This document shows, one piece after another, positions 4,269 to 60,262 of a stretch of 61,038 nt of DNA. The DNA is taken from positions 1-61,038 of the IMG/VR virus record IMGVR_UViG_3300045988_047031, one strand, 5' to 3'. Each line of letters opens with the position of its first letter. Position 1 is the stretch's first letter. A model generated the notes under the pieces. That model was not told where the DNA came from, did no database searches, and saw only the letters and a program-made list of their open reading frames with translations. The stretch comes from a virus. The position numbers and the translations under genes are program-made.

Positions 4269-4293
4269 TATTAGTATAATAAATATGTAACTT

Positions 4294-4321
4294 ATTACAA
4301 AGCTCTTAATAGAAGGAGAGA
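4294..4321 (+). promoter_or_regulatory. phage promoter-like element, copy a (attacaaagctcttaatagaaggagaga)
   Basis: fits TTTACA-N10-TAGAA(A/G)GAGAG with the same fixed spacing as the 12 other copies; lies 105 nt upstream of the SSB-like gene. Confidence 0.5.
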
Positions 4322-7361: not shown

Positions 7362-7493
7362 TTTTGTGCCACGTTTTGAGCCACTTTTTTAGGCCTATTT
7401 TTGCTATAATGTTATAGTATTTTGGACTAGTTTTTGGCGTGATTTTTAGATGTTTTCAGACGTCGAAAAAGTGGCTCAAAACGTGGCACAAAA
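7362..7493. repeat. 28-bp perfect inverted repeat (arms 7362-7389 / 7466-7493)
   Basis: ttttgtgccacgttttgagccacttttt versus its exact reverse complement; the 76-bp spacer contains TGcTATAAT; partial third copy aaaagtggctcaaaac at 7246-7261. Confidence 0.95.
7402..7410 (+). promoter_or_regulatory. extended -10 box TGcTATAAT (candidate host sigma-A promoter)
   Basis: exact TGnTATAAT; part of the 22-nt direct repeat tatttttgctataatNttatag (7396-7417 and 7639-7660). Confidence 0.4.
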
Positions 7494-7644: not shown

Positions 7645-7653
7645 TGCTATAAT
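7645..7653 (+). promoter_or_regulatory. extended -10 box TGcTATAAT (candidate host sigma-A promoter)
   Basis: second copy of the 22-nt repeat. Confidence 0.4.
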
Positions 7654-7659
7654 TTTATA

Positions 7660-7911: not shown

Positions 7912-8055
7912 CTATTTTTATATGGAAAATGGACATTTTTGATGATTTTTGTCTTGTTTTTCTGGTTTTGTGTTGTTTTAGTATAATTTAGGTAAAAATA
8001 CATATTTATTTTAGTATTCTGGTTGTATTTGGTATTTTCCAATGTTGCCGGATGT

Positions 8056-8495: not shown

Positions 8496-8715
8496 GGTAT
8501 GTATTTTTATAGTTTTTATGGGTATTTCTCAGTTTTGGGAAGTTCGAGGCGCTATAATAGCCCTCAGAGGCCCATATTCGCCCTGTATCGCGTTTTATGT
8601 TGTAGTCCGGTAAATAGTTCATCTTTGGGCTAAAATGCTGTGATGGGCCTTATATGGCCTTATACGACGTGTTAGTATTTTGGGCATTTTTAAGATTTTT
8701 GAGGAGGATTACGCA

Positions 8716-12001: not shown

Positions 12002-12257
12002 ACCCCGGGGGGGTGCCTATTACAGGCCTTCCTCTTCAGCATCGGGGCTGGTATCAAAAATTCCCCCGTTGCGATTTTTTTCAAAATGGTTTTGGATTTC
12101 TACAGGCCGATTCTAGGATTGGTTTGTGCTAGAGGGGTACTTTGCTCCTTTCAACCCCTATAGTATATAGCGGGCGTTAGACAGGACTGATGGTCGTTGT
12201 TGAAAACTGACCTAAAGTCGGTCTATAGGAGTCCAAAACTTATGAAAAAGGGTTCTA
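12002..12257. other. non-coding region upstream of the packaging genes (candidate cos/pac region)
   Basis: 256 nt without an ORF; ccccggggggg tract at about 12004-12014; repeated tacaggcc (about 12020 and 12100); sits just before the HNH-TerL module. Confidence 0.35.
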
Positions 12258-18369: not shown

Positions 18370-20469
18370 TTGCGAAAAAAGGCTGATTTCGCCGGATGGG
18401 TAACTAAGAATGACATTCGTTGTTCGGACGGTGTGACAATTCGTCACGATGCTTTCCGACAAAGTAATGGCGCTCAAGTACCTATCGTATGGCAACACGA
18501 TTACTCCAGTCCCTCAAACGTATTGGGGTATATGATTCTTCAGCACCGCGATGAGGGTGTCTATGGCTATGGATATCTTAATGATACAGACCATGCCCAA
18601 GATACTCGTACGCTTCTTAAACATGGTGATTTAAATGCTATGTCTATCGGCGCTCGTGGTATCCGTAAGAACGGTAATGACGTAATCCATGGAGAAATCT
18701 ATGAAGTAAGTCTAGTTCTTAAGGGCGCAAACCCTGGTGCTGTTATTGAACATGTTATGATCCATAGCGCATACGGGACTGAAGAGTATGAAGGTGATCG
18801 TGCGACCATTTTTACTGGTATCACGCAGGAACTTCTTCACTCAGATGATTCTGACGAAGAGGTCAACGAAGAAAAGGAGGGACAGATGTCTCGTTCATAC
18901 GAAGAACTTTTAGAAGGGCTTACTGACGAAGAACTAGCAACATTGGTCAACGGTGTTGTAGAAGACATTGCCGAAGCTATCGATGCTGAGGACGAAGAAG
19001 CTCAAAATGAATTAGAAATCCGCGGTCTTGAAGAAGAAGACGCTGATTACGATGAAGAAGAAGACGATTCAGATTATGATTCCGAAGAAGATGGATTTGA
19101 GTCTGAAGACGGTTATTCCGAAGGTGATGATTCTGCAGATGCAGGAGAGTCAGTGTCACACTCAATTTTTGAAGGAGAAGATATTTTGAAACATAACCAA
19201 TTCCAAGGCGCTACAGCAAGTGTAGATCAAAAGGAACTTGATACTCTATTACATAGTGCTATTTCTGGCAATGCTTCTACACTTGCAGGTGTATTGCGTG
19301 CTAACGGTGTATTGGGTGAAGATTCTATCCAACATGGTTTGGTTGGTATGGAAACTCTATTCCCACAACCAGCTACTAATGGTGGACTGAATGTTTATAA
19401 CCCAAGTGGACTGAATATCGATAAGATCATGGGTCAATTCGGTAAATCACCACTTCCGCGCGTTAAGAATTTGTTCGCTAACTTGACTGAAGACGAAGCT
19501 CGTGCTCGCGGTTACATCAAAGGTAACCAAACTCTGGATTCTATCGAAGAAGTTTACTTCCGTGAAACTACTCCAGGTTCTATTCACCGTCGCGAAACAA
19601 TCGACCATGATGACTTGATTGACTTGCAAGATGGTGGATTTGCGGCTGTAAACTTTATCCAACAAGTTCAAACTGCTAAATTCAAAGAAGAAATTGTTAA
19701 AGCTGCTTTCCTTTCAGATGGCCGTGACTTGACTCTTTCTACTGGTAAACGTAACCCTGAAAAGATTAGCGAACTTCATATTCGCCCAATCCTTAAGGAT
19801 CACCCATTGTTTACAATCAAGGTAACGTCTGCTACATTCAAGACTGCAGTTGATGATGTTATCAAGAAAGCATTCCCTGCATACCAAGGTTCAGGCAAAC
19901 CATCACTTTACATCAATCCGTTTGACTTGGCTAAGTTGAAGACATTGAAAGACGGTAATGGTCGCTACCTGTATGCTCCATCTATGGACAACAACCAAGT
20001 ACCAGGAAATGCCAACATTGCAGCTTACTTCATGTGTGACGAAGTCGTTGAATATCGCGCACTTCCTCAAGGAACTTTCGTAATCGGTAACTTGGCTGAC
20101 TATCAATTCGGTATGTCTCCAAACGGACAAATCGCTACATTTGACAGCTTCGACATCGACTTCATGCAACATAAATATTTGATGCATGCCCGTCTGTCTG
20201 GTGCAATTGTTACTCCTAAATCATTTATCGTGGTTACAGTAACTGATCCAGAAGCAACTGAGGAAACTGCTGTGAACTTTGATTCTACTGGTCTTAAGAC
20301 TAAACCAACTTGGACAGTTCAAACTGACCCAACTGAAGTGAAGGGTATTGGCGCTAAGGCTGTAGACTATGACGAAACTGTCAACGGCGCAGCTATGACT
20401 GAAGAAGAGAAGAAACTCGGAACAGTTGAAACAGCTCCGAAACCAAAGAAACCAAAGAAAGCTGAATAA
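18370..20469 (+). CDS. prohead protease - acidic scaffold/linker - HK97-fold major capsid protein fusion
   Basis: N-terminal HK97-type protease pattern (VPIVWQHD...GYL...MSIGAR...EVSLVLKGANPGA); 110-aa D/E-rich linker; capsid-like C-terminal 420 aa. TTG start; internal in-frame ATG 18886 with AAGGAGG RBS. Confidence 0.75.
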   Translation: MRKKADFAGWVTKNDIRCSDGVTIRHDAFRQSNGAQVPIVWQHDYSSPSNVLGYMILQHRDEGVYGYGYLNDTDHAQDTRTLLKHGDLNAMSIGARGIRKNGNDVIHGEIYEVSLVLKGANPGAVIEHVMIHSAYGTEEYEGDRATIFTGITQELLHSDDSDEEVNEEKEGQMSRSYEELLEGLTDEELATLVNGVVEDIAEAIDAEDEEAQNELEIRGLEEEDADYDEEEDDSDYDSEEDGFESEDGYSEGDDSADAGESVSHSIFEGEDILKHNQFQGATASVDQKELDTLLHSAISGNASTLAGVLRANGVLGEDSIQHGLVGMETLFPQPATNGGLNVYNPSGLNIDKIMGQFGKSPLPRVKNLFANLTEDEARARGYIKGNQTLDSIEEVYFRETTPGSIHRRETIDHDDLIDLQDGGFAAVNFIQQVQTAKFKEEIVKAAFLSDGRDLTLSTGKRNPEKISELHIRPILKDHPLFTIKVTSATFKTAVDDVIKKAFPAYQGSGKPSLYINPFDLAKLKTLKDGNGRYLYAPSMDNNQVPGNANIAAYFMCDEVVEYRALPQGTFVIGNLADYQFGMSPNGQIATFDSFDIDFMQHKYLMHARLSGAIVTPKSFIVVTVTDPEATEETAVNFDSTGLKTKPTWTVQTDPTEVKGIGAKAVDYDETVNGAAMTEEEKKLGTVETAPKPKKPKKAE

Positions 20470-40943: not shown

Positions 40944-40950
40944 TGTAAGG

Positions 40951-40996
40951 GCGTTGTGTGAGTGAAATCTACAACGCTTATTTTTTTTTATTTTTT
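40951..40996 (+). terminator. intrinsic terminator after the lysis cassette
   Basis: gcgttgt-13 nt-acaacgc followed by a long T tract. Confidence 0.6.
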
Positions 40997-41021
40997 ACAG
41001 CTCTCTATATAGAAAGAGAGG
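40994..41021 (+). promoter_or_regulatory. phage promoter-like element, copy b (tttacagctctctatatagaaagagagg)
   Basis: consensus copy; ATG 41030 is 8 nt after GAGAGG. Confidence 0.6.
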
Positions 41022-41029
41022 TATATGAT

Positions 41030-41377
41030 ATGCAAAAACTTGTTGAAAATTATAATTCTTGTAGGGAGAGATACCTTAACGCACCTACTTTTGGAAATGA
41101 CTTTATATATATTTGTTATTACGATATGTATATTGACGCATGTTCTAAGATATTGGACTGTTTAAATAACCTTAGGGTTGTTTATGATTGTGATCGAGAA
41201 TTGGGTCTCGAAGAAGCAATCCTTAAAGCAAAACTATTGAAATTTAAATGGTTTCATATGGATGGACGTATGTTCAATAAAATAAGAAGACAAATACTTA
41301 TAAAGCAAACCAAAAAGCAGATGCTGGAAGTAGACACCCTTACGATGTTCATAATCAAAGCATATTTGGAGCAATAA
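41030..41377 (+). CDS. hypothetical protein (115 aa)
   Basis: ATG 41030 after GAGAGGTA; the ORF-track N-terminal extension (from 40958) is a translation of the terminator/promoter. Confidence 0.7.
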   Translation: MQKLVENYNSCRERYLNAPTFGNDFIYICYYDMYIDACSKILDCLNNLRVVYDCDRELGLEEAILKAKLLKFKWFHMDGRMFNKIRRQILIKQTKKQMLEVDTLTMFIIKAYLEQ

Positions 41378-41396
41378 ACATTGCTCTTTTTCTTTT
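41369..41396 (+). terminator. intrinsic terminator
   Basis: gagcaa-taaaca-ttgctc plus tttttctttt. Confidence 0.65.
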
Positions 41397-41402
41397 AAAT
41401 TT

Positions 41403-41430
41403 TTTACACGTATCTATATAGAATACTAAT
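41403..41430 (+). promoter_or_regulatory. phage promoter-like element, copy c (tttacacgtatctatatagaatactaat)
   Basis: same TTTACA-N10-TAGAA geometry. Confidence 0.55.
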
Positions 41431-41454
41431 GGATATTTTAAAGGAGGAATTAAT

Positions 41455-41565
41455 ATGCAATATGTTATTGGGACATTGATTGTGTTGTGGATCCTAAGTT
41501 ACGGATTCACTAGTATTTTGAAAGGGATCGGTGGATTTCTATTAAGACTGTTTGGTCGATATTAG
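41455..41565 (+). CDS. micro-ORF, 36-aa hydrophobic peptide
   Basis: AAAGGAGG RBS 7 nt upstream; MQYVIGTLIVLWILSYGFTSILKGIGGFLLRLFGRY; bracketed by promoter element and terminator; below the ORF-track cutoff. Confidence 0.6.
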   Translation: MQYVIGTLIVLWILSYGFTSILKGIGGFLLRLFGRY

Positions 41566-41591
41566 AGATTTCACCAATCTCTTTTCTTTTT
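41564..41591 (+). terminator. intrinsic terminator
   Basis: agagatt-tcacc-aatctct plus tttctttttc. Confidence 0.65.
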
Positions 41592-41597
41592 CAAAAC

Positions 41598-41625
41598 TTT
41601 ACATCTATCTATATAGAATAAAGAA
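41598..41625 (+). promoter_or_regulatory. phage promoter-like element, copy d (tttacatctatctatatagaataaagaa)
   Basis: same geometry. Confidence 0.55.
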
Positions 41626-41639
41626 ATGAGGTAGTTCAA

Positions 41640-41927
41640 ATGAAGAACAAATTATTTATGTTGAAGTTGGAAGATCGCAATACAGTTCGCGATAACTTGG
41701 ACGCAATATTGAGTCGTATCCATGACTATATTGCAGACAAATACTTGGAAGGTGAAGTTGATATTGAAATCACGAATATTACAATCGTGAATTTCGGTAT
41801 TCAGGGGATCGATTTCCGAGCACTGTCTGGTAATCTAGATTTGGTTTATGGCAAACTATTGGAGTCCGGATATCATGCTGAACTATTTAGCGACGAAGAC
41901 ACTACATGGATTAAAGTGAGTGTTTAA
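41640..41927 (+). CDS. hypothetical protein (95 aa)
   Basis: GAGGTAG RBS; cassette bounded by terminators. Confidence 0.7.
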   Translation: MKNKLFMLKLEDRNTVRDNLDAILSRIHDYIADKYLEGEVDIEITNITIVNFGIQGIDFRALSGNLDLVYGKLLESGYHAELFSDEDTTWIKVSV

Positions 41928-41946
41928 TACACTCATTTCTTTTTTC
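41918..41946 (+). terminator. intrinsic terminator
   Basis: gagtgt-ttaat-acactc plus atttcttttttc. Confidence 0.6.
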
Positions 41947-41952
41947 AAAACA

Positions 41953-41980
41953 TTTACAGTTCTCTATATAGAAAGAGAGG
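41953..41980 (+). promoter_or_regulatory. phage promoter-like element, copy e (tttacagttctctatatagaaagagagg)
   Basis: consensus copy; ATG 41989 is 8 nt downstream. Confidence 0.6.
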
Positions 41981-41988
41981 TAGTCGAT

Positions 41989-42072
41989 ATGAACAAAAAG
42001 AATGAAGAAACCAAGGATATGACTTGGTGGCAATTTCTATTGGGTCTATGGTTTTTAGACCTATTTTTCTAA
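41989..42072 (+). CDS. micro-ORF, 27-aa peptide with hydrophobic C terminus
   Basis: MNKKNEETKDMTWWQFLLGLWFLDLFF; consensus promoter/RBS upstream, terminator downstream. Confidence 0.55.
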   Translation: MNKKNEETKDMTWWQFLLGLWFLDLFF

Positions 42073-42074
42073 AC

Positions 42075-42103
42075 GGAGACTACAAAGGTCTCCTATTTTT
42101 TTT
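42075..42103 (+). terminator. intrinsic terminator
   Basis: ggagac-tacaaag-gtctcc plus tattttttttt. Confidence 0.7.
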
Positions 42104-42118
42104 AAGAAAGGATATGTA

Positions 42119-42309
42119 ATGGAACAAACAAGGATACCGGATGCTAAAGAAATGGCAATAAAAAAGGGCTGTATGACGCATATAATGGAAGTAAATATGC
42201 TCTAAATGATAAACAGTTAATTAAATATCTAGAGGACGAACTTGGATATGAAGTAAGCGCCGGATATGAATACAACCTTAGATTATATGGGATTACACTA
42301 AAATGGTAA
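42119..42309 (+). CDS. small gene requiring a -1 frameshift at A_AAA_AAG (42160-42166)
   Basis: the 0-frame ORF (42119-42205) and a start-less 54-codon -1-frame ORF (42148-42309) overlap at the heptamer. The -1 ORF ends right at the next RBS. Fused product is about 63 aa. Confidence 0.5.
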
Positions 42310-42319
42310 AGGAGAATGT

Positions 42320-42634
42320 ATGACAACCAGATGGAAAGAACTAACGACGGTTATTGTCTCGGCCCTGATTTTTGTTACGATCTGCATTGCTCTAATTGAG
42401 ATTAATACAGCTAACAAGATCAATGAGCTGGAAAAAAAACATCAGAGAGAGGTTAAGACTCTAACTGAGGAACGCGACATGTATAAGAAGCGATGGGAAT
42501 TTCGAGATGACGTTGCTACTTATTACTACGATGAATATCTCGATTTGAAGGAAAAATACGAAAATCTTAAACTTGCATTAGGAAAAACGGAGGATGAAGA
42601 AAATGATAAAACTCAAAACAGCAGCGGAAATTAG
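42320..42634 (+). CDS. membrane-anchored coiled-coil protein (104 aa)
   Basis: AAAGGAG RBS; N-terminal TM (VIVSALIFVTICIALI). Confidence 0.7.
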   Translation: MTTRWKELTTVIVSALIFVTICIALIEINTANKINELEKKHQREVKTLTEERDMYKKRWEFRDDVATYYYDEYLDLKEKYENLKLALGKTEDEENDKTQNSSGN

Positions 42635-42971
42635 ACAGATGATTGCGGATAAACGGAGCGCAGTAAGGTCGGGAATTGACTTAACTAAGGTTTATGAAAA
42701 GGTAAACAATAGGTTAGAGAACCTTGAACTCGGCGCAACTAGTATTCTACTTTTAGCAAAATCAATTAGACCTGATGTCAATGTTCCAGATGAAGAATGG
42801 AAAGATTCTTTACAATTCATTTTTGATGAAATCCAAATCAAACTTGAAGATAACGGATATACTGTCCGCCCACATTATGGTTTAGGTTTTGGTAGTACAC
42901 CTCCTCGCATTGGATTGATTATTTACTGGGATCCAAAAGACCTGCCGGATGACGGCGAAAGGGAAGAATAA
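42603..42971 (+). CDS. hypothetical protein (about 122 aa)
   Basis: ACGGAGG RBS 9 nt before ATG 42603 (ATG 42594 also possible). Confidence 0.65.
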   Translation: MIKLKTAAEIRQMIADKRSAVRSGIDLTKVYEKVNNRLENLELGATSILLLAKSIRPDVNVPDEEWKDSLQFIFDEIQIKLEDNGYTVRPHYGLGFGSTPPRIGLIIYWDPKDLPDDGEREE

Positions 42972-42974
42972 ATA

Positions 42975-43002
42975 TTTACAACCCTCCTAATAGAAAGAGA
43001 GG
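42975..43002 (+). promoter_or_regulatory. phage promoter-like element, copy f (tttacaaccctcctaatagaaagagagg)
   Basis: same geometry; ATG 43011 is 8 nt downstream. Confidence 0.55.
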
Positions 43003-43010
43003 ACATTATT

Positions 43011-43187
43011 ATGCGTAAATTTTTAAGATTTGTTGGTTTTCGTTGTCTTGCTGCATACGCTGTTATGGAGGAAGCTTATATTGATAGGCTTGTGAAAAAC
43101 GGTTATGTTGAACAAGATGCTGCGAAACACAACGAACGTCTTGAGGTTACAAGATACGTTCTAACTAAATTGAAGAAAGAGTATTAA
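43011..43187 (+). CDS. hypothetical protein (58 aa)
   Basis: just below the ORF-track cutoff; promoter/RBS element upstream, terminator hairpin overlapping the stop. Confidence 0.6.
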   Translation: MRKFLRFVGFRCLAAYAVMEEAYIDRLVKNGYVEQDAAKHNERLEVTRYVLTKLKKEY

Positions 43188-43210
43188 TACAATACTCTTT
43201 TAATTTTTTA
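43177..43210 (+). terminator. intrinsic terminator
   Basis: 9-bp stem aagagtatt / aatactctt, loop aatac, then tttaatttttt. Confidence 0.6.
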
Positions 43211-43234
43211 CAACTGTCTATATAGAAAGGAAGG
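43207..43234 (+). promoter_or_regulatory. phage promoter-like element, copy g (tttacaactgtctatatagaaaggaagg)
   Basis: same geometry; ATG 43242 is 7 nt downstream. Confidence 0.55.
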
Positions 43235-43241
43235 AAACGTT

Positions 43242-43583
43242 ATGAAACTTTTTAAGAAAAAACACGTTGCTAAAATTGAAGAAACTATCGAGGCTAAACT
43301 CGATGAACTGAATACCCAACTGGCTGAAGTACCAACGGGTAGTGAGGAAGAAGTCAAAATCTTGGACGATATTGATTTTCTTACCAAAACATTGACGGAT
43401 ATTAAAGTCCGCCATATGCAAGGTAAAGAAAAGAAGCTCGAACCACAGGTTAAGGCGGCTATCATCACTACTGTTGGTGGTGCTATTGCTAGTATTGCAG
43501 GTATCCTAATCATCAGGGATTATGAAGCGGAAGACGGTCTCTTCACTTCTAGCGCAAAGAATTTTATTAAGAAGCTGTACTAA
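43242..43583 (+). CDS. hypothetical protein with C-terminal TM (113 aa)
   Basis: ORF after promoter element g; AAIITTVGGAIASIAGILII helix. Confidence 0.7.
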   Translation: MKLFKKKHVAKIEETIEAKLDELNTQLAEVPTGSEEEVKILDDIDFLTKTLTDIKVRHMQGKEKKLEPQVKAAIITTVGGAIASIAGILIIRDYEAEDGLFTSSAKNFIKKLY

Positions 43584-43609
43584 TGTACACTTCTTTCTTT
43601 TTTTTTTTT
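43576..43609 (+). terminator. short hairpin plus tacacttctttc-T12 element
   Basis: tgtac-taat-gtaca; 24 nt (43586-43609) are identical to 45609-45632. Confidence 0.45.
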
Positions 43610-43617
43610 GGTATAAT
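43609..43617 (+). promoter_or_regulatory. extended -10 box TGgTATAAT
   Basis: exact TGnTATAAT directly after the T tract, 19 nt before ATG 43636. Confidence 0.35.
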
Positions 43618-43635
43618 ATAAAAGGAGCAATATTT

Positions 43636-44142
43636 ATGGAGTATGTTGATAAGACAGAGCACCCAACGATTTACAGCCTAATGGAGTATGATGTAGGTTT
43701 TAGAAAGCTGTTTTATCCTTATATCTTTGGGATTATGGCGGATAACCATCTTGAATGTAATGATTATGATTTTGAGATGTTCAAGGTCATCTTTATTTCA
43801 ACTATGGTTATTATCCAAAATTATTATACTTCTGACCTTATCAAGAAGTATGAGGAAGATATCAGAGGTTTGTATTTCGCATATTTCAAGGTTCGAACAA
43901 TAACCAATGTTGGGCAGGACGGTATCGATAAGATTACGACTCGTATTCGTACTAAGATTACAGACTTTGATTTATCACCAACTGATGCAGACTTTGAAAA
44001 TTGTATCGAAATGGTAAAAACAGATATGCCTCGAGTCAATAACTACGAAACATGGGATGTTATTGTATACAAAATGGAATATTTCCGTGATTGCTACTAT
44101 AACATAATTCGTATATTGCATCAAGCTAAAGGAGGGAATTGA
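43636..44142 (+). CDS. hypothetical protein (168 aa)
   Basis: AAAGGAG RBS before ATG 43636; the ORF-track extension from 43522 overlaps the previous gene and terminator. Confidence 0.7.
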   Translation: MEYVDKTEHPTIYSLMEYDVGFRKLFYPYIFGIMADNHLECNDYDFEMFKVIFISTMVIIQNYYTSDLIKKYEEDIRGLYFAYFKVRTITNVGQDGIDKITTRIRTKITDFDLSPTDADFENCIEMVKTDMPRVNNYETWDVIVYKMEYFRDCYYNIIRILHQAKGGN

Positions 44143-44462
44143 TGTCAGAAAGTACGGCACGTATCGCCCAAACCAAGAACCGTGAGTTGCGTCTTAAAAA
44201 GATGAACGACCTATCTTTTATTCATTTCATCACAACCGAAGCTGTTGTTTTGCTATATTTAACACAATATATGATGGAAACAGCTGAAGAATGGGTTGAC
44301 TGGTGTACTGAGGAGTATGGCGGTAATTGGTATTGTGGCCATAACTTTGCCCAACTAGGCGCAGACCATAAATCTTATATTGAAGAGTCAATCAAAAACG
44401 CAAATAAAATTCTTGATGAATTCATTATCGAAGGAGGATATGAACATGAAATTCAACCTTAA
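44142..44462 (+). CDS. hypothetical protein (106 aa)
   Basis: AAAGGAGGG RBS; ATG overlaps the previous stop. Confidence 0.7.
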   Translation: MSESTARIAQTKNRELRLKKMNDLSFIHFITTEAVVLLYLTQYMMETAEEWVDWCTEEYGGNWYCGHNFAQLGADHKSYIEESIKNANKILDEFIIEGGYEHEIQP

Positions 44463-44889
44463 AATCAAAAACCAAAATAAACTATTGTTGATTGTTGCTG
44501 CTATTGCTACTATTGGTGCCATTGCGTGTGGTGTATGGTATTTTATCCCTCACCCACCGCATGCAGATATTGTAACCTTGGAAGATGCTAAAGATTTCAA
44601 GAAAGCCGAAGACTGGTATAAGGTCACACGCTGGGAAGTTGTATCTGTTGATATGTCAGCTTATGATAAAAGTAAAGACGAATACGGCTTCTTCGGAAAG
44701 GTAACGCTTAAAGGGGCAGGAGACCCTGTATATGCCGCGCTTACCAAGAAAGATGGCGGCGAAGACTATTCTATAGAGGAAGGCGATGTTGTATATGCTA
44801 AAACCTCTAACCTCGAAAAGAATTTCCTATTCGGAAACATGGTTACAGGTGATATCTTATATATTGAAAAAGGAGGAGCGAAGAAATGA
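44446..44889 (+). CDS. N-terminally anchored/secreted protein (147 aa)
   Basis: GAAGGAGG 8 nt before ATG 44446; TM/signal LLLIVAAIATIGAIACGVWYF. Confidence 0.65.
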   Translation: MKFNLKIKNQNKLLLIVAAIATIGAIACGVWYFIPHPPHADIVTLEDAKDFKKAEDWYKVTRWEVVSVDMSAYDKSKDEYGFFGKVTLKGAGDPVYAALTKKDGGEDYSIEEGDVVYAKTSNLEKNFLFGNMVTGDILYIEKGGAKK

Positions 44890-45173
44890 GTAACGAAATT
44901 CTATTATTCCCTAACAATGTAATTCTGGTCAATGCTTTATACCATACAAGTATCGGCTACAACAGACAAGACGATACTGGTATCGCGCTTAATCTCACGC
45001 CTATCAGCGCTAATGACCATATCGAAGATGATTTGGATATCATGGAAGATATTGCAGAATATCTATTCCAACTATATTTGAAAGATCCTAAGATTGCAGC
45101 TAAAATCAAGCGACCACGTTATTACTATAACGACATGTATAAACGCTGGATTATCACATTTGAGTTTAAATAA
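44886..45173 (+). CDS. hypothetical protein (95 aa)
   Basis: ATGA overlap with the upstream gene; GGAGGAG RBS. Confidence 0.7.
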   Translation: MSNEILLFPNNVILVNALYHTSIGYNRQDDTGIALNLTPISANDHIEDDLDIMEDIAEYLFQLYLKDPKIAAKIKRPRYYYNDMYKRWIITFEFK

Positions 45174-45178
45174 AAATT

Positions 45179-45206
45179 TTTACATACCACTATATAGAAC
45201 AAATAA
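45179..45206 (+). promoter_or_regulatory. phage promoter-like element, copy h (tttacataccactatatagaacaaataa)
   Basis: same geometry. Confidence 0.55.
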
Positions 45207-45222
45207 AAAGGAGGACATTAAT

Positions 45223-45606
45223 ATGTCAAAAGTAAAACAATTGAAAGAAGCAGAAACTACTGAAGTTATTGAAAATGCAGAGGCTGTTGCCGGTAGCGTA
45301 TTTGAAAACTTGTCAGATGAAGAGAAGGCTAAGCTTCTTGCGATGGTTGACCAACAACCAGTTGTTGAAGAGAAACAAGGAAAAGCTAAACAAGCTTGGA
45401 ATTGGGTCAAATCTAACAAATGGAAAATTGGTGGAGCTATTGCAGGAGCTGCCCTTATCGGATTCCTTGGCAAGAAAGCGTACGATGCTGGTATGCCTGC
45501 AGAATTCGATGCTGATGTAATTGACGGCGACTATGAAATTGCTGAACTTGAAGAGTATGAAAATACTCCTGAAGTTGTTGAAGAGACGGAAGAGGTTGTA
45601 GAGTAA
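45223..45606 (+). CDS. acidic protein with central TM helix (127 aa)
   Basis: AAAAGGAGG RBS before ATG 45223; WKIGGAIAGAALIGFLG helix. Confidence 0.7.
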   Translation: MSKVKQLKEAETTEVIENAEAVAGSVFENLSDEEKAKLLAMVDQQPVVEEKQGKAKQAWNWVKSNKWKIGGAIAGAALIGFLGKKAYDAGMPAEFDADVIDGDYEIAELEEYENTPEVVEETEEVVE

Positions 45607-45632
45607 TCTACACTTCTTTCTTTTTTTTTTTT
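45597..45632 (+). terminator. short hairpin plus tacacttctttc-T12 element
   Basis: tgtaga-gtaa-tctaca; 24 nt identical to 43586-43609. Confidence 0.45.
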
Positions 45633-45645
45633 GAAGGAGAACTTG

Positions 45646-45888
45646 ATGAAGAAAACATATTTGGATAAATACCCATACGAATTGAAAAACATTGATGATA
45701 CGCATTGGTCTATTCTGATTGACCCACTTGACCACCAAGCCGCTACCGACTTGGTTCTGAATTTTGGGCGTACAGATAACCGCGTTTCTATTGAAGGCAT
45801 GGCACTTAAAGTCAAGAGCCACAAGACGGTTCTTTCTAAATACGAAGATGGGATGCAAGCTATTCTTATCTCTGCCTATATTCTTTAA
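45646..45888 (+). CDS. hypothetical protein (80 aa)
   Basis: GAAGGAG RBS before ATG 45646. Confidence 0.65.
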   Translation: MKKTYLDKYPYELKNIDDTHWSILIDPLDHQAATDLVLNFGRTDNRVSIEGMALKVKSHKTVLSKYEDGMQAILISAYIL

Positions 45889-45892
45889 AATT

Positions 45893-45920
45893 TTTACCAT
45901 GCACTATATAGAAAGGAGAC
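45893..45920 (+). promoter_or_regulatory. phage promoter-like element, copy i (tttaccatgcactatatagaaaggagac)
   Basis: same geometry, but not followed by an ORF. Confidence 0.5.
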
Positions 45921-46024
45921 TCCTTGGAGTACTTGGTGTACGATGAGAGCACATGAGTAATTGCAAGGCGCCGGTTTGATTCCGGCAGGAAACAAGGAAA
46001 GTCTACTTTCATTTTTTTTTTTTT
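45909..46024 (+). ncRNA. candidate small structured RNA (about 100-115 nt)
   Basis: promoter element i upstream and T13 tract downstream, with no ORF longer than 5 codons. A 15-bp closing helix (45911-45926 with 45993-46010) and a T-arm-like hairpin gccgg-tttgatt-ccggc (45970-45986). Confidence 0.3.
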
Positions 46025-54716: not shown

Positions 54717-55274
54717 ATGTTGTATTTAATAGACTCTACTGTACAAAGTTCAAATCGTGTCATGTTTAAGGCGGTTGATTTTTTTGAGCGATATGGCGTT
54801 GAATATAAGATACTATCCACCTATAAGAAAACTCGAATGGGTGGTGGTGAATACACACCTAAACTTCCTCGTGAGCTGGCGGCTAAGATTGTGCGATATT
54901 TCGATTATAACATTAAGGGTATCTGCAAGCTACCAAACTCCTCATATGTTCGAGCCATGCATAAGATATCGCCTCAAGCTAAACGGGATTTGAAGTCTGG
55001 ACGTATTTACGATATGACCTGCTCACAGTTTATTGACTGGATTGCAGAGAATCCATGTATGTTAAAAATCACTGTTCTATATGATGATAAACGAGATATT
55101 ATCATATCGCATTTCAAAGAAGAGGACTTGCGCGTGTTTGTCCCTAAGGAATATCGTTCGGTTAGACGTAACCAAATACAATATACTGTCCTTAGTGAAC
55201 TCGGTCTGGCTTCACCTCTAGAAGAAGACCAACCTGGCGTAAAGACGCGCAAAAAATTACCGTCCTCTATATAG
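54717..55274 (+). CDS. Spx/ArsC-family-like protein lacking the CXXC motif
   Basis: N terminus MLYLIDSTVQSSNR..AVDFFERYGVEY versus Spx [27 protein letters not shown]. C terminus WIAENPCMLKITVLYDDKRDIIISHFKEEDLRVFVPKEYRS versus Spx [39 protein letters not shown]. Confidence 0.6.
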   Translation: MLYLIDSTVQSSNRVMFKAVDFFERYGVEYKILSTYKKTRMGGGEYTPKLPRELAAKIVRYFDYNIKGICKLPNSSYVRAMHKISPQAKRDLKSGRIYDMTCSQFIDWIAENPCMLKITVLYDDKRDIIISHFKEEDLRVFVPKEYRSVRRNQIQYTVLSELGLASPLEEDQPGVKTRKKLPSSI

Positions 55275-55283
55275 AAAGAGAGG
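55256..55283 (+). promoter_or_regulatory. phage promoter-like element, copy j (attaccgtcctctatatagaaagagagg)
   Basis: overlaps the 3' end and stop codon of the Spx-like gene; ATG 55292 is 8 nt downstream. Confidence 0.55.
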
Positions 55284-55934: not shown

Positions 55935-57365
55935 ATGAAAAAACAAACTACACTTAAAATTGCTGCCATGGGTATCGCTCTCTTTGGTTCTGCTGTTGTT
56001 ACGGAGTCTGCATTTGCTGATGTGACAAAAGCCGAAGGGTCTACCGAACTTATTGCTACCGATCCTGCGGTGACTATCAGTAAAAATGAAGAGGACTCCA
56101 TTTGGTCGGATGTCAACGTAAACATCAAGACCGATATTCCTGATGAAGTTCCTATTAACGAAGGCGATAAGATGACTTTCAATATCCCAGAGGAGCTTAA
56201 TCTCGAAACCAGCTACGATTTCCCTGTATATAATGAAACAGGAGAAACTGAAGTTGGTACTGCTGATGTCAAGGCTAATGAACGTACTGTAACTACAACG
56301 TTCAATAATTATTTTACCGAGCATCCGCTGGATAAATCTATCAGCTTGAATTTTACCACTAAGATCAACCGTGAAGTTATGCAGGAAAACACCAAGCGTA
56401 ATGTTTCATTCAATGGTACTATTGTGGAAATCAACGCAGGTTCTAAAGGTACAATCAACCCTAATGAGGAATTGTACAAATACGGTTACCAAGACCGTGA
56501 CGATAAAGATCTTATCCACTGGGTTGCTCGTTTGAATTACAAGCGCCAAACAATGGAAGATGTAAACATCTCTGATACATGGTCTGATGATCAAGACTAT
56601 GTTGAGGGTAGCCTTATTTACAGCTACGTTAAAGATGTGGATCCATGGGTATATGACTCACCTGCTACTCAAGCTCGGGCGAATACTAAATTCAACAAGA
56701 ACGGTTTTACCACACACATCGATAAGATTGAAAACAAAATCTTGATGGTTGAGTATAAGACACGCTTGCGTACACCAGTTCTTTATAACCCAACTAACTT
56801 ATTCACAGCTAGCTGGAACGGAGGGTTTGTATCACACGAAGCTGAAACTAAACTTTATGATGGTAATGGTAAAGCAACTGGTAAATCCCGTCCAAAATGG
56901 GACAAACCAAATGATGCGCCTAAGTATGAGCTTCCTGAGTTTGAAGGAGGCGTTGTTCCTAACGATCCTCCAGTTTACAAAAACCCATCTATTGACTTAG
57001 CCGATATCCCATTGATGCCACCAGCGCCTACATTGGATTTGCCAGAATGGAAAGGCGGAACTGTACCATTTGACGCTCCTAAACACGACAAACCAGAATT
57101 CAACGGTGGTGTTATTCCTAATGATGCACCTATCGTAGACCTTCCAGAGTTGGTTATTCCTGAAATGCCAGCTCCTAAGGAAGATAAACCTAAAGTTGAA
57201 ATCAAAGAAAAACCAGTTAAACCAGCTAAGCAACAACCTCTTGGCCGACCTACCTTACCAGCAACAGGTAGTGATGAAACTACATATCTTGCCATTGGCG
57301 GTGTTGTAATTGGTGTACTCGCATTGGGCATGGCTGGAATGAAAAAGAAAGATGAGGAAAAATAA
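55935..57365 (+). CDS. LPXTG-anchored surface adhesin (collagen-binding/MSCRAMM-like A domain plus proline-rich repeats)
   Basis: signal peptide MKKQTTLKIAAMGIALFGSAVVTESAFA; GDKMTFNIPEELNLETSYDFPVYN...VTTTFNNYF resembles the Collagen_bind domain core; three PE(F/W)xGG(V/T)(V/I)P(N/F)D(A/P)P repeats; LPATG plus TM plus KKKDEEK. Confidence 0.8.
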   Translation: MKKQTTLKIAAMGIALFGSAVVTESAFADVTKAEGSTELIATDPAVTISKNEEDSIWSDVNVNIKTDIPDEVPINEGDKMTFNIPEELNLETSYDFPVYNETGETEVGTADVKANERTVTTTFNNYFTEHPLDKSISLNFTTKINREVMQENTKRNVSFNGTIVEINAGSKGTINPNEELYKYGYQDRDDKDLIHWVARLNYKRQTMEDVNISDTWSDDQDYVEGSLIYSYVKDVDPWVYDSPATQARANTKFNKNGFTTHIDKIENKILMVEYKTRLRTPVLYNPTNLFTASWNGGFVSHEAETKLYDGNGKATGKSRPKWDKPNDAPKYELPEFEGGVVPNDPPVYKNPSIDLADIPLMPPAPTLDLPEWKGGTVPFDAPKHDKPEFNGGVIPNDAPIVDLPELVIPEMPAPKEDKPKVEIKEKPVKPAKQQPLGRPTLPATGSDETTYLAIGGVVIGVLALGMAGMKKKDEEK

Positions 57366-57619
57366 TGAAACGCGGAAAGAATAATAAAGCTGTTTTAATA
57401 AACCAAAGTATTAAATGCATGGAAGCTTATGCCGACAGAAGACAACCCGCTAATCCAATTGGTATCTTTTGGAGAAACAAAGCCGAAAAATTCAAATCGC
57501 TCAACCCATCAAAACTTAAAAAGGCATATCTAAAAGCGTTTATTAGGGCTGTAGTGGTAAGATTGCCTGAGGAGAATGTGTATTACATGGAGGAATTAAA
57601 TGAAAGTAAACCCAACTAA
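57365..57619 (+). CDS. basic hypothetical protein (84 aa)
   Basis: ATG overlaps the preceding stop (TAATG). Confidence 0.6.
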   Translation: MKRGKNNKAVLINQSIKCMEAYADRRQPANPIGIFWRNKAEKFKSLNPSKLKKAYLKAFIRAVVVRLPEENVYYMEELNESKPN

Positions 57620-58178
57620 TATGTTAAAGGCTCATGATGAGCTTCTCGCCATTTTTGAAAAGAAGAATTCCGACTACGGAAATTCGTTCGAAGAGTCCTT
57701 GGAAAAACACGGTCTGATCGCCGCTATCGTGCGTATGGAAGATAAGATGGGACGATTAAATAGTCTTACTAAAGCTGGGTCGAAGCAGAAAGTGTCTGAT
57801 GAATCTTTGGTTGACACGCTCAAAGACCTGTCTAACTATGCACTCATGACCGCGGTTTGGCTGGAAGAGGAAAAGGCGTTTCATGATAGACCAGCACAAC
57901 CACCCCTTAGCGAATGGGACGAACTAATTCCTAATGGCTCTAATCTCAAATCAATTATTGTAGATTTGATGAAGGACTTGCCTGATATATTTACGGTTAA
58001 ACATCTCACTCTTGATGACTGCGAGAAACCTAAATCTGTATTTTTTGTAGTAAAGGATGAAGACAAATTCCGTAAGTGGTCTATTTCTTATATTGATAAG
58101 CATCCTGGGTATGATGCTACGTATCGTTCGCTTAACGAAAAACTCACCCAAGTCCAAGTCTTCTCATACACGGAGTAG
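57600..58178 (+). CDS. DUF1599 / MazG-like all-alpha nucleotide-pyrophosphohydrolase-fold protein (tentative)
   Basis: LAIFEKKNSDYGNSFEES...IVRMEDKMGRL pattern; GGAGGA RBS. Confidence 0.45.
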   Translation: MKVNPTNMLKAHDELLAIFEKKNSDYGNSFEESLEKHGLIAAIVRMEDKMGRLNSLTKAGSKQKVSDESLVDTLKDLSNYALMTAVWLEEEKAFHDRPAQPPLSEWDELIPNGSNLKSIIVDLMKDLPDIFTVKHLTLDDCEKPKSVFFVVKDEDKFRKWSISYIDKHPGYDATYRSLNEKLTQVQVFSYTE

Positions 58179-58491: not shown

Positions 58492-58519
58492 AATACATGC
58501 CTCATAATAGAAAGAGAGG
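58492..58519 (+). promoter_or_regulatory. phage promoter-like element, copy k (aatacatgcctcataatagaaagagagg)
   Basis: same geometry; ATG 58529 is 9 nt downstream. Confidence 0.5.
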
Positions 58520-58528
58520 TAACTTAAT

Positions 58529-58750
58529 ATGGAAAATCTTAATCCTAATGATCTATTTTATCACGGCTGGATTCCTGCTAGAGATGAAGATGCCGATGTA
58601 GCATATGCTTGGTTTACAACTAAAGATGATGATACACAAACATTTATTGTCCCTATGACTAAGGATCAGGCACGTGATTTAAAGGAAACTTTTGGAGACC
58701 CGATTTTACCAGAAGAAGCTGGTATTTTTCTAAATAATGATGGAGAATAG
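58529..58750 (+). CDS. hypothetical protein (73 aa), paralogue of the N terminus of 60271-60612
   Basis: shared pattern Y..GW.P..D.D....A.F ... PM.K...D.K. Confidence 0.65.
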   Translation: MENLNPNDLFYHGWIPARDEDADVAYAWFTTKDDDTQTFIVPMTKDQARDLKETFGDPILPEEAGIFLNNDGE

Positions 58751-58775
58751 TTTATACTATTCTCTTCAATTTTTT
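58743..58775 (+). terminator. hairpin terminator
   Basis: 9-bp stem gagaatagt / actattctc, loop ttat, then ttcaattttt. Confidence 0.55.
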
Positions 58776-58800
58776 ACATATCTCTCTATAGAAAGAGAGG
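58773..58800 (+). promoter_or_regulatory. phage promoter-like element, copy l (tttacatatctctctatagaaagagagg)
   Basis: same geometry; ATG 58809 is 8 nt downstream. Confidence 0.6.
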
Positions 58801-60234: not shown

Positions 60235-60262
60235 TTTACACGTGTCTATATAGAAAGAGAGG
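60235..60262 (+). promoter_or_regulatory. phage promoter-like element, copy m (tttacacgtgtctatatagaaagagagg)
   Basis: consensus copy; ATG 60271 is 8 nt downstream. Confidence 0.6.

Follow-up and report, generated by a model that had tools for sequence, protein, structure and literature searches.

A one-stranded, promoter-like element and its candidate cognate two-barrel polymerase in phages of Firmicutes and Actinobacteria

Background

YonO, the two-barrel RNA polymerase encoded by the Bacillus prophage SPbeta, transcribes late genes. The crAss-like phage phi14:2 has a repeated conserved motif that turned out to serve the host's sigma-70; no common motif was seen for the two-barrel polymerase of its virion, and the early transcripts of this enzyme (gp66) share no upstream motif, unlike the element described here. 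The promoters of another virion polymerase, N4 vRNAP, are DNA hairpins. In the Gordonia cluster DJ phage Vardy, a 50-bp intergenic motif that contains TATAAT is present in five mid-genome copies among small membrane-protein genes (PMC9671010). In this study I describe a repeated element in a viral genome from IMG/VR (IMGVR_UViG_3300045988_047031, 61,038 nucleotides, analysed over its full length and called the window below), which is found together with the gene of a candidate two-barrel polymerase.

Results

Within the 61-kb window the pattern WWTACM-N10-TAGAA is matched 14 times, 13 times on the + strand and once on the - strand (19275), whereas dinucleotide-shuffled sequences contain 0.66 matches on average and at most 3. 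The + strand matches are exactly the 13 listed in a preliminary description of this DNA (Table 1), although its title counted nine copies in 40994-45920, an interval that contains eight. A weight matrix of 29 nt, trained on the 13 copies, gives them 15.9-34.9 bits in leave-one-out scoring, and the scores are cleanly bimodal: no further site on the + strand of the window reaches 8 bits, the top site on the - strand has 9.9 bits, and shuffles yield 0.1 matches at threshold. Applied to both strands with shuffled controls, as had been proposed, the matrix recovers these 13 sites and none else; the - strand match at 19275 fails it and was rejected.

Table 1. Positions of the element copies and associated features in the window
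Feature	Position	Strand	Remarks
Element copy 1	4294..4321	+	ATTACA-N10-TAGAA-GGAGAGAG; most divergent; leave-one-out 15.9 bits
Host-type extended -10 box	7402..7410	+	TGCTATAAT within CCACTTTTTTAGGCCTATTTTTGCTATAAT; 1.3 kb upstream of polymerase gene
Candidate RNA polymerase, 973 aa	8716..11637	+	two-barrel YonO/RdRP-like type; proposed reader of the element
Terminator-like hairpin and T tract before copy 2	40949..40993	+	hairpin 40949-40979; -13.8 kcal/mol; closes lysis block
Element copy 2	40994..41021	+	TTTACAGCTCTCTATATAGAAAGAGAGG; ATG at 41030; first copy past lysis genes
Terminator-like hairpin and T tract before copy 3	41368..41397	+	
Element copy 3	41403..41430	+	3' half not Shine-Dalgarno; separate AGGAGG, then ATG at 41455
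Terminator-like hairpin and T tract before copy 4	41564..41592	+	
Element copy 4	41598..41625	+	separate Shine-Dalgarno; ATG at 41640
Terminator-like hairpin and T tract before copy 5	41914..41947	+	
Element copy 5	41953..41980	+	ATG at 41989 (27-aa peptide)
Element copy 6	42975..43002	+	ATG at 43011
Terminator-like hairpin and T tract before copy 7	43175..43206	+	
Element copy 7	43207..43234	+	ATG at 43242
Element copy 8	45179..45206	+	separate Shine-Dalgarno; ATG at 45223
Element copy 9	45893..45920	+	precedes tRNA-like RNA; no start codon found, no ORF after
Structured tRNA-like small RNA	45922..46024	+	core ~45922-45995; then hairpin 45997-46010 and run of 13 T
Element copy 10	55256..55283	+	overlaps 3' end of ORF 54717-55274; ATG at 55292
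Element copy 11	58492..58519	+	AATACA..TAGAAAGAGAGG; ATG at 58529; leave-one-out 16.9 bits
Terminator-like hairpin and T tract before copy 12	58738..58772	+	
Element copy 12	58773..58800	+	ATG at 58809
Element copy 13	60235..60262	+	ATG at 60271

None of the 13 copies lies within 8.7-40.9 kb, as had been noted before. TAGAA is followed by AGAGAGG in seven of them, in line with the earlier 'usually', and the eight copies said to carry the Shine-Dalgarno in their 3' half do so, with the ATG 14-16 nt after TAGAA, that is 7-9 nt after the GG. Three copies lack a Shine-Dalgarno in their 3' half and carry the ribosome-binding site separately, further downstream; altogether, 12 copies precede a Shine-Dalgarno and an ATG, and one precedes a tRNA-like RNA without an open reading frame. 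The hairpin with T tract, previously ascribed to most copies, is present directly upstream of six (Table 1), while the remaining copies come after the stop codon of the preceding open reading frame. Conservation reaches about 7 nt upstream of TTTACA, with the consensus T-M-A-A-A-T-W over 194 distinct instances from related IMG/VR contigs; base-pair covariation was looked for inside the element and not found. The 36-aa open reading frame behind copy 3 has a hydrophobic sequence, which suggests a membrane peptide. Copy 1 is located upstream of another 36-aa open reading frame and a module of ssDNA-annealing protein, helicase and exonuclease genes. Its block is nearly invariant in 10 relatives despite variable flanks, the orthologous position is occupied in the Lactococcus phages 1706 (46476) and P092 (44436), and all close relatives whose upstream flank is long enough retain a copy some 4.4 kb ahead of the polymerase gene.

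The small RNA behind copy 9 matches the Rfam tRNA model weakly at 45927-45994 (15 bits) and has a folding z-score of -3.1, and in 13 relatives five pairs of its acceptor-like and T-arm-like stems are maintained via two-sided changes; ARAGORN detects no tRNA at 45922..46024. As this copy drives a conserved RNA without an open reading frame, the signal appears to work in transcription and not in translation.

Promoters of the sigma-70 family have a -35/-10 spacing of 17 +/- 1 nt. In the element WTTACA and the TATA box are 5-6 nt apart, which excludes a sigma-A -35/-10 reading and confirms the earlier statement that TTTACA cannot be a sigma-A -35. A sigma-A promoter, including the extended -10 type, was considered for the TTGACA-like TTTACA and the TATAAT-like hexamer, but rejected on this spacing and on the box itself: in the window and in the 194 clade instances it reads TATATA-G, with no T at -7 and no TG extension. 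True extended -10 boxes are located elsewhere in the window, at 7402 (Table 1), 7645-7653, 7837-7845 and 43609. The last (TGGTATAAT) is the single other promoter-like signal near the cassettes, outside 7.2-8.7 kb. An extended -10 box is present in all 19 close relatives (19/19), at a distance of 1.18-1.33 kb before the polymerase gene. The element-free block of polymerase, cos site, structural and lysis genes probably depends on this conserved host-type box as a candidate promoter.

The open reading frame at 8716-11637 has a full-length match to phrog_4291 (E = 0) and contains a DFDGD catalytic motif at residues 569-573, so that its earlier designation as an RNA polymerase candidate is upheld at the level of homology; the identity of this polymerase was proposed before from HHpred (bioRxiv 10.1101/842583). 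Helix-turn-helix (HTH) modules are found at about residues 66-84 and 109-128 near the N-terminus and 950-970 at the C-terminus. The Pfam matches are HTH_7, HTH_23 and Sigma70_r4_2, with a sub-threshold RdRP match. In an alignment with the homologues from 1706, Scap1 and Secretariat, DFDGD is invariant across the lineages and all three HTH modules are conserved. The two-barrel fold was not confirmed by AlphaFold2, whose model from a shallow alignment reached a mean pLDDT of 45.5; PDB sequence searches matched the HTH parts only. Searches of the large open reading frames of the window revealed no T7-like polymerase domain, and no sigma factor came up among the 27 larger ones scanned.

The element is present in all six (6/6) more distant polymerase-sharing phage lineages examined, namely Lactococcus 1706 and P092, Streptomyces Scap1, Gordonia Secretariat, Arthrobacter Mudcat and Bifidobacterium BitterVaud1. 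They share the core WTTACA-N5/6-TATAnn with a purine-rich segment after it, and layout, strand and genome compartment (past the tail and lysis genes and inside the replication module) are alike in all of them. Phage 1706 has 10 copies (TTTTACA-N5-TATAGT-AGAAAGAAGG), P092 about 11 (TTTTACA-N5-TATAAT-GAAAG), Scap1 six (TCGCAAG-TTTTACA-N5-TATAGT-GAGACCCC), Secretariat nine (TCGCA-ATTACA-N5-TATAAT-GAGACCCC), Mudcat six with a perfect TATAAT, and BitterVaud1 four, also with a perfect TATAAT and with AAACA replacing TTACA. The block upstream is lineage-specific and reads T-M-A-A-A-T-W in the window phage; 1706 has CACA there, and the actinobacteriophages have TCGCR. A single generic pattern is matched 10, 14, 12, 2 and 9 times on the + strand and 1, 0, 1, 0 and 0 times on the - strand, where less than one match is expected. 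The motif scan and the polymerase scan have at least 16 IMG/VR contigs in common, each of about 60 kb. Element and polymerase thus co-occur in seven lineages of phages from two bacterial phyla, Firmicutes and Actinobacteria, and this co-occurrence with lineage-specific variants is the pattern expected of a cognate promoter/polymerase pair. No published link between the two was found in the literature.

Discussion

The preliminary description proposed that the element is the cognate promoter of the phage RNA polymerase. This is supported in part, by the non-sigma-A geometry, the polymerase homologue, the co-occurrence in seven lineages and the copy in front of a non-coding RNA. Judged from sequence, I consider it rather probable that the 13 elements are sigma-independent promoters read by the phage's own two-barrel polymerase, and that they serve small membrane-protein and replication genes. 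I infer that the product of 8716-11637, a single polypeptide, would read the elements directly without a sigma factor, with its three HTH modules docking on duplex DNA at the invariant WTTACA and the lineage-specific block just upstream. The TATA box, half a helical turn downstream of WTTACA (5 nt in the relatives, 6 nt in the window), would be the melting region. RNA synthesis would begin at or just past TATA(G/A), and therefore the purine-rich AGAAAGAGAGG would form the mRNA 5' end, with leaders of about 15-20 nt, and supply the Shine-Dalgarno. Together with the intrinsic terminators, the elements would make up short independent cassettes that express small membrane-protein genes, the tRNA-like RNA, and replication and recombination genes. 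The polymerase/cos/structural/lysis block would be transcribed from the extended -10 promoter of host type that lies among the iterons before the polymerase gene, a box that allows either scheme, an early-made or a virion-delivered polymerase. The annotation of the 1706 homologue, orf75, as 'structural protein' by its authors speaks for a possible delivery in the virion; orf62 and orf71, likewise located outside the morphogenesis module, were given this annotation too. The structural proteins of 1706 were reportedly identified by mass spectrometry of virions.

Alternatively, the element could be a host sigma-A promoter with a -10 box only, in which WTTACA and the upstream blocks are bound by a factor of the phage, which brings in the host polymerase or redirects it; the large HTH protein could itself play this part, as an activator. 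I regard this as unlikely. Actinobacterial sigma-A can use promoters that consist of a -10 box only, whereas in Firmicutes a -10 box without TG or -35 is normally insufficient. The perfect TATAAT of P092, Secretariat, Mudcat and BitterVaud1, with TATAGT in 1706 and Scap1, agrees with such a promoter. It counts against the phage polymerase as reader, and so does the transcription of late genes by YonO, as the late block of the window phage is without the element; the tripartite repeated motif of phi14:2, used by the host polymerase, is a cautionary precedent. The Vardy announcement also reads its motif as a sigma-70 -10 box (PMC9671010). However, the window phage and its clade have A and not T at -7 and no TG, a start about 7 nt past the box would land inside the GAGG Shine-Dalgarno in eight copies, and an intact, lineage-invariant DFDGD is hard to explain for a mere activator.

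The window core TCTATATAGA is a perfect 10-nt palindrome, 1706 has ACTATAGT, and these genomes encode HTH proteins, all of which would suit an operator for a phage HTH repressor or regulator, without promoter activity of its own. I give this very little credence, as the palindrome is lost in P092, Secretariat, Mudcat and Scap1, and the whole element is asymmetric and confined to one strand. Moreover, other promoter-like signals near the cassettes are scarce and several cassettes start right after a terminator, therefore something there must start transcription. Scarcely any credence is due to an action on RNA, whether by enhancing translation or as a processing site in long read-through transcripts: the eight copies whose 3' half forms the Shine-Dalgarno, at a constant spacing to the ATG, would fit, but neither the copy before the tRNA-like RNA nor the three copies with a separate ribosome-binding site do. 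Furthermore, the conserved 5' blocks persist in the actinobacteriophages, where the Shine-Dalgarno lies 12-18 nt further on, and the lack of covariation noted above points the same way.

The element resembles the T7/T3/SP6-type promoters: both are compact, contiguous and highly conserved, 25-35 bp long and repeated many times on a single strand. Both also have an A/T-rich part upstream, a TATA box for melting beside the presumed start and a purine-rich stretch that is transcribed first, and they occur in terminator-promoter cassettes with short leaders (SP6 CACTATAGAAGAG, window phage CACTATATAGAAAG, 1706 CACTATAGTAGAAAG). The element differs in being bipartite with a variable spacer of 5-6 nt, and the enzyme, a two-barrel DFDGD YonO/RdRP-like protein with HTH modules, is unrelated to the single-subunit, Pol I-like polymerases. 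The comparison with SP6 made earlier therefore holds for the resemblance and not for a T7/SP6-type enzyme, and the likeness is at best convergent.

Compared by description, YonO is likewise a single-polypeptide two-barrel polymerase of about 100 kDa; it too is encoded by a phage with a Gram-positive host, and it is specific in its promoter usage. It transcribes a late operon from one mapped start, its PYONO promoter sequence being undefined, whereas the candidates in the window are located in non-structural regions and the window polymerase has HTH modules at both ends. With the virion polymerases (N4 vRNAP, phi14:2 gp66 and the tape-measure-fused enzyme of P23-45) the window polymerase would share delivery in the virion, if the annotation of 1706 orf75 applies, as well as a regulon of early-looking small genes and a gene that belongs to one transcriptional block with those of the virion; unlike in N4, no hairpin covariation was found in the window element. 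The Vardy motif was described in one phage, without a link to a polymerase gene or to relatives from other phyla (PMC9671010). Vardy belongs to cluster DJ, as does Secretariat, in which the box of the nine copies is followed by GAGACCCCTACGAAAGGA, and its 50-bp motif is probably the same element as that of the window.

Results

The pattern WWTACM-N10-TAGAA, which describes the 28-nt promoter-like element, matches 14 times in the 61,038-base window, once on the - strand (19275) and 13 times on the + strand, exactly at the starts given in the preliminary description, whereas dinucleotide shuffles give a mean of 0.66 matches and a maximum of 3. A 29-nt weight matrix, built from the 13 copies and scored leave-one-out, assigns them 15.9-34.9 bits; on the remainder of the + strand no site reaches 8 bits, the best - strand site has 9.9 bits, and shuffled sequences yield 0.1 matches at the threshold. 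Scanning the window with this matrix and shuffled controls, as had been suggested, recovers the 13 known copies and nothing further. From the pattern counts and the matrix scores I conclude that the set of 13 copies is real, complete and confined to one strand. The single - strand match (19275-19295) lies within the capsid gene, fails the weight matrix and is regarded as a chance match. One - strand pattern match is also present in many relatives, possibly at the same site and held there by coding conservation.

The interval 40994-45920 holds eight copies, not nine as first counted, and the block of the polymerase gene, cos site, structural genes and lysis genes holds none. Conserved sequence reaches approximately 7 nt upstream of TTTACA. 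Twelve copies stand upstream of a Shine-Dalgarno sequence and an ATG, with AGAGAGG following TAGAA in 7 copies and the ATG 14-16 nt past TAGAA in 8, as previously described, but a hairpin with a T tract directly upstream, earlier ascribed to most copies, was found for only 6 of the 13. The thirteenth copy, 45893 (copies are named by their + strand start), has no downstream open reading frame and is followed by a conserved tRNA-like RNA, which has a hairpin and a stretch of 13 T at its end. This RNA has a weak Rfam tRNA match, under the gathering score, and a folding z-score of -3.1, and among 13 relatives five base pairs in its acceptor-like and T-arm-like stems are kept through changes on both sides. 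Rfam gives no match at the gathering threshold in the whole window. ARAGORN finds no tRNA in the window, in the Lactococcus phages 1706 and P092, in Gordonia phage Secretariat or in Streptomyces phage Scap1, and the tRNA-like sequences that follow some copies are therefore degenerate. Two element copies in P092 are likewise followed by a tRNA-like sequence (…AGCTCAGAGGTAGAGC…) that ARAGORN does not call.

Several products of the cassettes (terminator-like hairpin, element, Shine-Dalgarno sequence and small gene) between 41455 and 45606 are, on reading the sequence, very small with hydrophobic, membrane-segment-like stretches, matching the array of small membrane-protein genes described in related actinobacteriophages. 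The phage element is not used by every cassette; within the array a host-type extended -10 box directly follows a terminator and a run of 13 T. Two TATAAT boxes stand 13-25 nt upstream of the divergent copy 4294, the distal of which (AGTATAAT/ACTATAAT) is part of a block conserved among relatives, and the recombination module may be served by a host-type as well as a phage-type promoter.

Features of the window, with the evidence on which each assignment rests
Feature	Position	Strand	Evidence or description
Two TATAAT boxes	4262-4281		CCTATAAT, AGTATAAT
Non-coding region	7154-8715		1.5 kb, just upstream of polymerase gene
Host-type promoter (credible)	7402	+	TGnTATAAT box, …TTTTTGCTATAAT
Inverted repeat	7660-7712 / 7859-7911		53 nt, 98% complementary, around AT-rich core
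Polymerase, 973 aa	8716-11637	+	phrog_4291 ('RNA-dependent RNA polymerase'), full length, E = 0
Probable cos site	~12030-12045		…GCATCGGGGCTG / GTATCAAAAATTCCCCCGTTGCG…, homologous to joined right and left termini of 1706, P092 and Scap1
Invariant blocks	~12178-12245		TTAGACAGGACTG … TAAAGTCGGTCTAT.GAGTCCAAA
Terminase, portal, fused protease-capsid, Dit, Tal, CHAP lysin	12.8-40.9 kb	+	Pfam, PHROGs
Peptidase_S78 prohead protease and Phage_capsid, fused in single ORF	18370-20469
Small membrane-like ORFs	36 aa at 41455; 27 aa at 41989; from 43242; from 45223		hydrophobic stretches
Host-type extended -10 box	43609-43617		TGGTATAAT, before ORF 43637-44142
tRNA-like RNA	45922-46024		follows copy 45893
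Helicase-primase-PolB replicase, 1381 aa	50205-54350	+	phrog_4210, E = 0; homologue of 1706 'four-in-one' GP55
ssDNA-annealing protein, helicase, exonuclease		+	Pfam, PHROGs
Surface-adhesin-like ORF	55935-57365		Big_8 Ig domain, collagen-binding domain, LPXTG cell-wall anchor
DUF1599 ORF	57600-58178		'nucleotide modification associated domain 1'

Scanned with TTTACA-N5-CTATATAGAA, IMG/VR gave more than 117 loci, many on contigs of 57-63 kb with several copies on a single strand, and at least 16 of the element-bearing contigs recur in an independent scan for the polymerase. The clade consensus, from 194 distinct instances, is T-M-A-A-A-T-W-TTTACA-nn-y-y-W-CTATATAGAA-A-G-A, and within the window's clade copy 4294 forms a near-invariant island between variable flanks. 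Distant relatives are more telling than this close clade, and the versions of the element across lineages are the main new evidence: seven lineages, with polymerase identities of 37-51%, each have a version of their own, all genomes compared being carriers of the polymerase. The generic pattern [AT]TTAC[AC]-N5-6-TATA[ATG][AT] has 10, 14, 12, 2 and 9 matches on the coding strand of the window, 1706, P092, Scap1 and Secretariat, respectively, against fewer than one expected per genome, and 1, 0, 1, 0 and 0 on the opposite strand. In every genome the element occupies the same compartment, made up of the replication module and the array of small genes that follows the tail and lysis genes, and the copy before the gene for the ssDNA-annealing protein is positionally orthologous in the window (4294), 1706 (46476) and P092 (44436).

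Versions of the element in phages carrying a polymerase homologue
Phage (host)	Copies	Version
1706 (Lactococcus)	10	cacatgTTTTACA-yAyrC-TATAGT-AGAAAGAAGGTA
P092 (Lactococcus)	~11	TTTTACA-TACCC-TATAAT-GAAAG
Scap1 (Streptomyces, 61% GC)	6	TCGCAAG-TTTTACA-N5-TATAGT-GAGACCCCTAC
Secretariat (Gordonia)	9	TCGCAnnn-ATTACA-N5-TATAAT-GAGACCCCTACGAAAGGA
Mudcat (Arthrobacter)	6	TCGCGtAA-ATTACA-N5-TATAAT
BitterVaud1 (Bifidobacterium)	4	TCGCGAnnn-AAACAT-CGCT-TATAAT-GAA

Two other candidates were discarded. The motif CATATTCG of Bifidobacterium phage is scattered within coding sequence, and a variant 'late' promoter, TTTCAACCCCTATAGTATATAG, at ~12148 near the left genome end, is unconserved in relatives that are 70-88% identical there. 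Weak look-alikes are seen in 1706 (position 104) and in P092, close to the left genome end in both.

In this phage the element does not fit a promoter of the sigma-70 type. TTTACA is separated from the TATA box by 5-6 nt, against the 16-18 nt between sigma-70 hexamers, and neither the 13 copies nor the clade instances have a conserved hexamer 17 nt upstream of the TATA box. In the window and its clade the box is TATATAG, without a TG extension and without a T at -7, although the A at that position (position 18) is fixed by the search pattern itself; the T that would complete an alternative TAGAAT hexamer is present in only 29% of instances. The earlier statement that TTTACA is unable to act as a sigma-A -35 box is borne out by the spacing. 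Another register for sigma-A, with TAGAAW as the -10 box and the -35 box in T-M-A-A-A-T, was rejected for this clade, as it matches poorly and its key bases are unconserved. A sigma-type start, approximately 7 nt past the box, would land inside the Shine-Dalgarno sequence, and the two 20-kb regions scanned show no excess of sigma-70-like sites (48 found vs. 57.5 and 58.1 expected). The features of a -10 hexamer are present in P092 and the actinobacteriophages (TATAAT).

A hairpin promoter of the N4 type was likewise rejected, since in 113 distinct 30-mers pairing equals the expectation from column composition at every pair of positions. The resemblance to SP6 promoters that had been pointed out holds as far as the sequence goes (CACTATA(TA)GAA), but no T7/SP6-type polymerase domain (Pfam RNA_pol, PF00940) was found in the large ORFs of the window to go with it, and the spacer of the element is variable. 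The T7/SP6-type promoter is a contiguous signal spanning -17 to +6, in which TATA occupies -4 to -1 and the purine after it is the start. Three ORFs reach 800 aa: the two-barrel polymerase homologue, a tape-measure-like protein without a Pfam match, and the helicase-primase-PolB replicase.

The polymerase carries SGADFDGDTAY at residues 566-576, the metal-binding DxDGD loop, which is invariant in four lineages. Pfam recognizes HTH_7, HTH_23, HTH_3 and Sigma70_r4_2-type modules in it, and RdRP (PF05183) at 17.8 bits, under the cut-off of 23.8. Aligned with the homologues of 1706, Scap1 and Secretariat, its catalytic core is highly conserved and three HTH modules lie at approximately residues 66-84, 109-128 and 950-970. 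The same protein was proposed in a 2021 preprint to be a YonO/crAss-like RNA polymerase flanked by HTH domains, on the basis of HHpred (95.7% probability) and the DxDGD motif (bioRxiv 10.1101/842583). Searches of the PDB by sequence and by profile matched the HTH modules only, with no two-barrel match, and the AlphaFold2 model is unusable (mean pLDDT 45.5, core below 50), being built on a shallow alignment because two protein searches gave almost only sequences of 97-100% identity. The loop nevertheless points to a polymerase of the two-barrel YonO/RdRP-like type; the enzyme is not of the T7/SP6 type.

Among isolated phages, 250 encode a homologue with 37-51% identity; their hosts are Lactococcus, Streptomyces, Gordonia, Arthrobacter, Rhodococcus, Microbacterium, Curtobacterium, Bifidobacterium and Faecalibacterium, and the gene invariably stands close to the right genome end. 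In database searches the polymerase has more than 7,800 protein matches, of which the best 120 are 97-100% identical, many of them on contigs of 59-62 kb. A search of GTDB genomes gave no close relative of the polymerase, which fits a virulent phage. A near-identity DNA search with 40-48 kb against isolated phages gave no match. Many of the related IMG/VR contigs come from seemingly human-microbiome samples and one copy lies in a bin labelled [Eubacterium] sulci; the phage seems to be uncultivated, associated with humans and highly abundant.

Every large ORF is encoded on the + strand. As the cos ends of 1706, P092 and Scap1 were determined experimentally and the region around 12040 is homologous to their joined termini, this region is probably the cos site with the physical genome ends, and the window would hold a complete cos genome in circularly permuted form. 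The linear order would then begin with the structural and lysis genes, followed by the small-gene array (41-46 kb), replication and recombination (46-61 kb, then 0-7.1 kb), the 1.5-kb non-coding region and, at the right end, the polymerase gene and a small ORF. The stretch that leads from the cos site to the first structural-block ORF contains sequence blocks with partial inverted symmetry that are invariant across relatives, with variable sequence next to them; a terminase-binding site or a leader structure of the late transcript is possible.

The non-coding region is dense in iteron-like direct and inverted repeats in both orientations (TTCCCCAAAT / TGGGGAAAAT / AAAAGTGGCTCAAAAC), and 1706 (AAAACTTCGGGA repeats) and one IMG/VR locus, L164 (AAACTTGTACA repeats), also have iteron-rich regions ahead of the polymerase gene. 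Three of the four + strand TGnTATAAT boxes of the window fall within it, among them the box at 7402, which all 19 close relatives compared keep at a distance of 1.18-1.33 kb before the polymerase gene, and which is a credible host-type promoter. The region may be a replication origin, the control region of the late block, or both.

Further loci deserve mention. The adhesin-like ORF is unusual cargo for an apparently virulent phage, the phage DNA may be modified (cf. the DUF1599 ORF), and the fusion of protease and capsid has also been described for the Arthrobacter phage clusters AM and AU.

Discussion

I consider it fairly probable that the element is a promoter read by the phage polymerase. 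I infer that the HTH modules would bind WTTACA together with the lineage-specific upstream block, that the TATA box would be the melted region, that transcripts would start on TATA(G/A) or immediately behind it, and that the purine-rich segment would serve both as the 5' end of the mRNA and as its Shine-Dalgarno sequence. Six copies follow a terminator-like hairpin, so that transcription has to restart there, and this restart, together with the non-coding RNA after copy 45893, indicates that the element acts on transcription; an operator and a role at the RNA level, even taken together, seem quite improbable.

Alternatively, the host polymerase could read the element with the help of a phage factor. 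P092 and the actinobacteriophages have a perfect TATAAT as the box, and actinobacterial sigma-A can use promoters that have only a -10 box. A 50-bp motif of cluster DJ phage Vardy, probably the same element and the sole published account of it that I came across, was read as a sigma-70 -10 box (PMC9671010). In the phage studied here, spacing and box indicate that the element is no sigma-A promoter, and I regard a host polymerase with a phage factor as unlikely. The TATAAT boxes and the Vardy reading, along with the precedent of phi14:2 and the late-gene role of YonO, are nevertheless the reasons why my confidence in the phage polymerase is not higher.

Extending this reading by the phage polymerase, I would give an even chance to a self-sufficient system, in which a polymerase of approximately 110 kDa, with the two-barrel core that cellular RNA polymerases also have and with fused HTH modules instead of a sigma factor, recognizes a compact duplex promoter WTTACA-N5/6-TATAnn conserved from phages of Actinobacteria to phages of Firmicutes, and is possibly injected for the early/middle programme. 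The observations fit a T7-like scheme, in which host polymerase makes the phage polymerase first and this then fires the 13 promoters. They also fit a scheme as in N4 and crAss-like phages, in which a virion polymerase is injected for early and middle genes and host polymerase then expresses the late block, which would begin with the polymerase gene itself. The latter is favoured by the annotation of 1706 orf75, the polymerase homologue, as 'structural protein' by its authors. The 1706 products orf62 and orf71, which like orf75 are encoded outside the morphogenesis module, are annotated likewise, and the structural proteins of 1706 were reportedly identified by mass spectrometry of virions.

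Promoters specific for a phage polymerase are already a known kind, and separate pieces of the present picture have been published: the putative polymerase (bioRxiv 10.1101/842583), the Gordonia-phage motif read as a sigma-70 box, and YonO with its promoter undefined. In the literature searched I found no link between element and polymerase and no report of conservation across phyla, although the original papers on 1706 (Garneau 2008) and ReqiPepy6 (Summer 2011) could describe the repeats. If such a self-sufficient system is real, the YonO/RdRP-like branch of RNA polymerases would for the first time have a defined promoter, and the small polymerase with this promoter would be a candidate orthogonal expression system for Gram-positive bacteria. 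With a defined promoter, natural sequence variants in at least seven lineages, and cultivable models in Lactococcus phage 1706 and the SEA-PHAGES Gordonia, Arthrobacter and Streptomyces phages, it becomes possible to test directly how the polymerases of this lineage recognize their promoters.

A known system gives reason for caution: the conserved motif that recurs in the crAss-like phage phi14:2 was shown to be a promoter for host sigma-70, and the virion two-barrel polymerase has no common motif. YonO, the one characterised relative, transcribes late genes from an undefined promoter, whereas here the late block is without the element. The YonO/RdRP-like enzymes are distant relatives of cellular polymerases, and the one described here is accompanied by a sharply defined, multi-copy candidate promoter, a case relevant to the evolution of promoter recognition before, or without, sigma factors.
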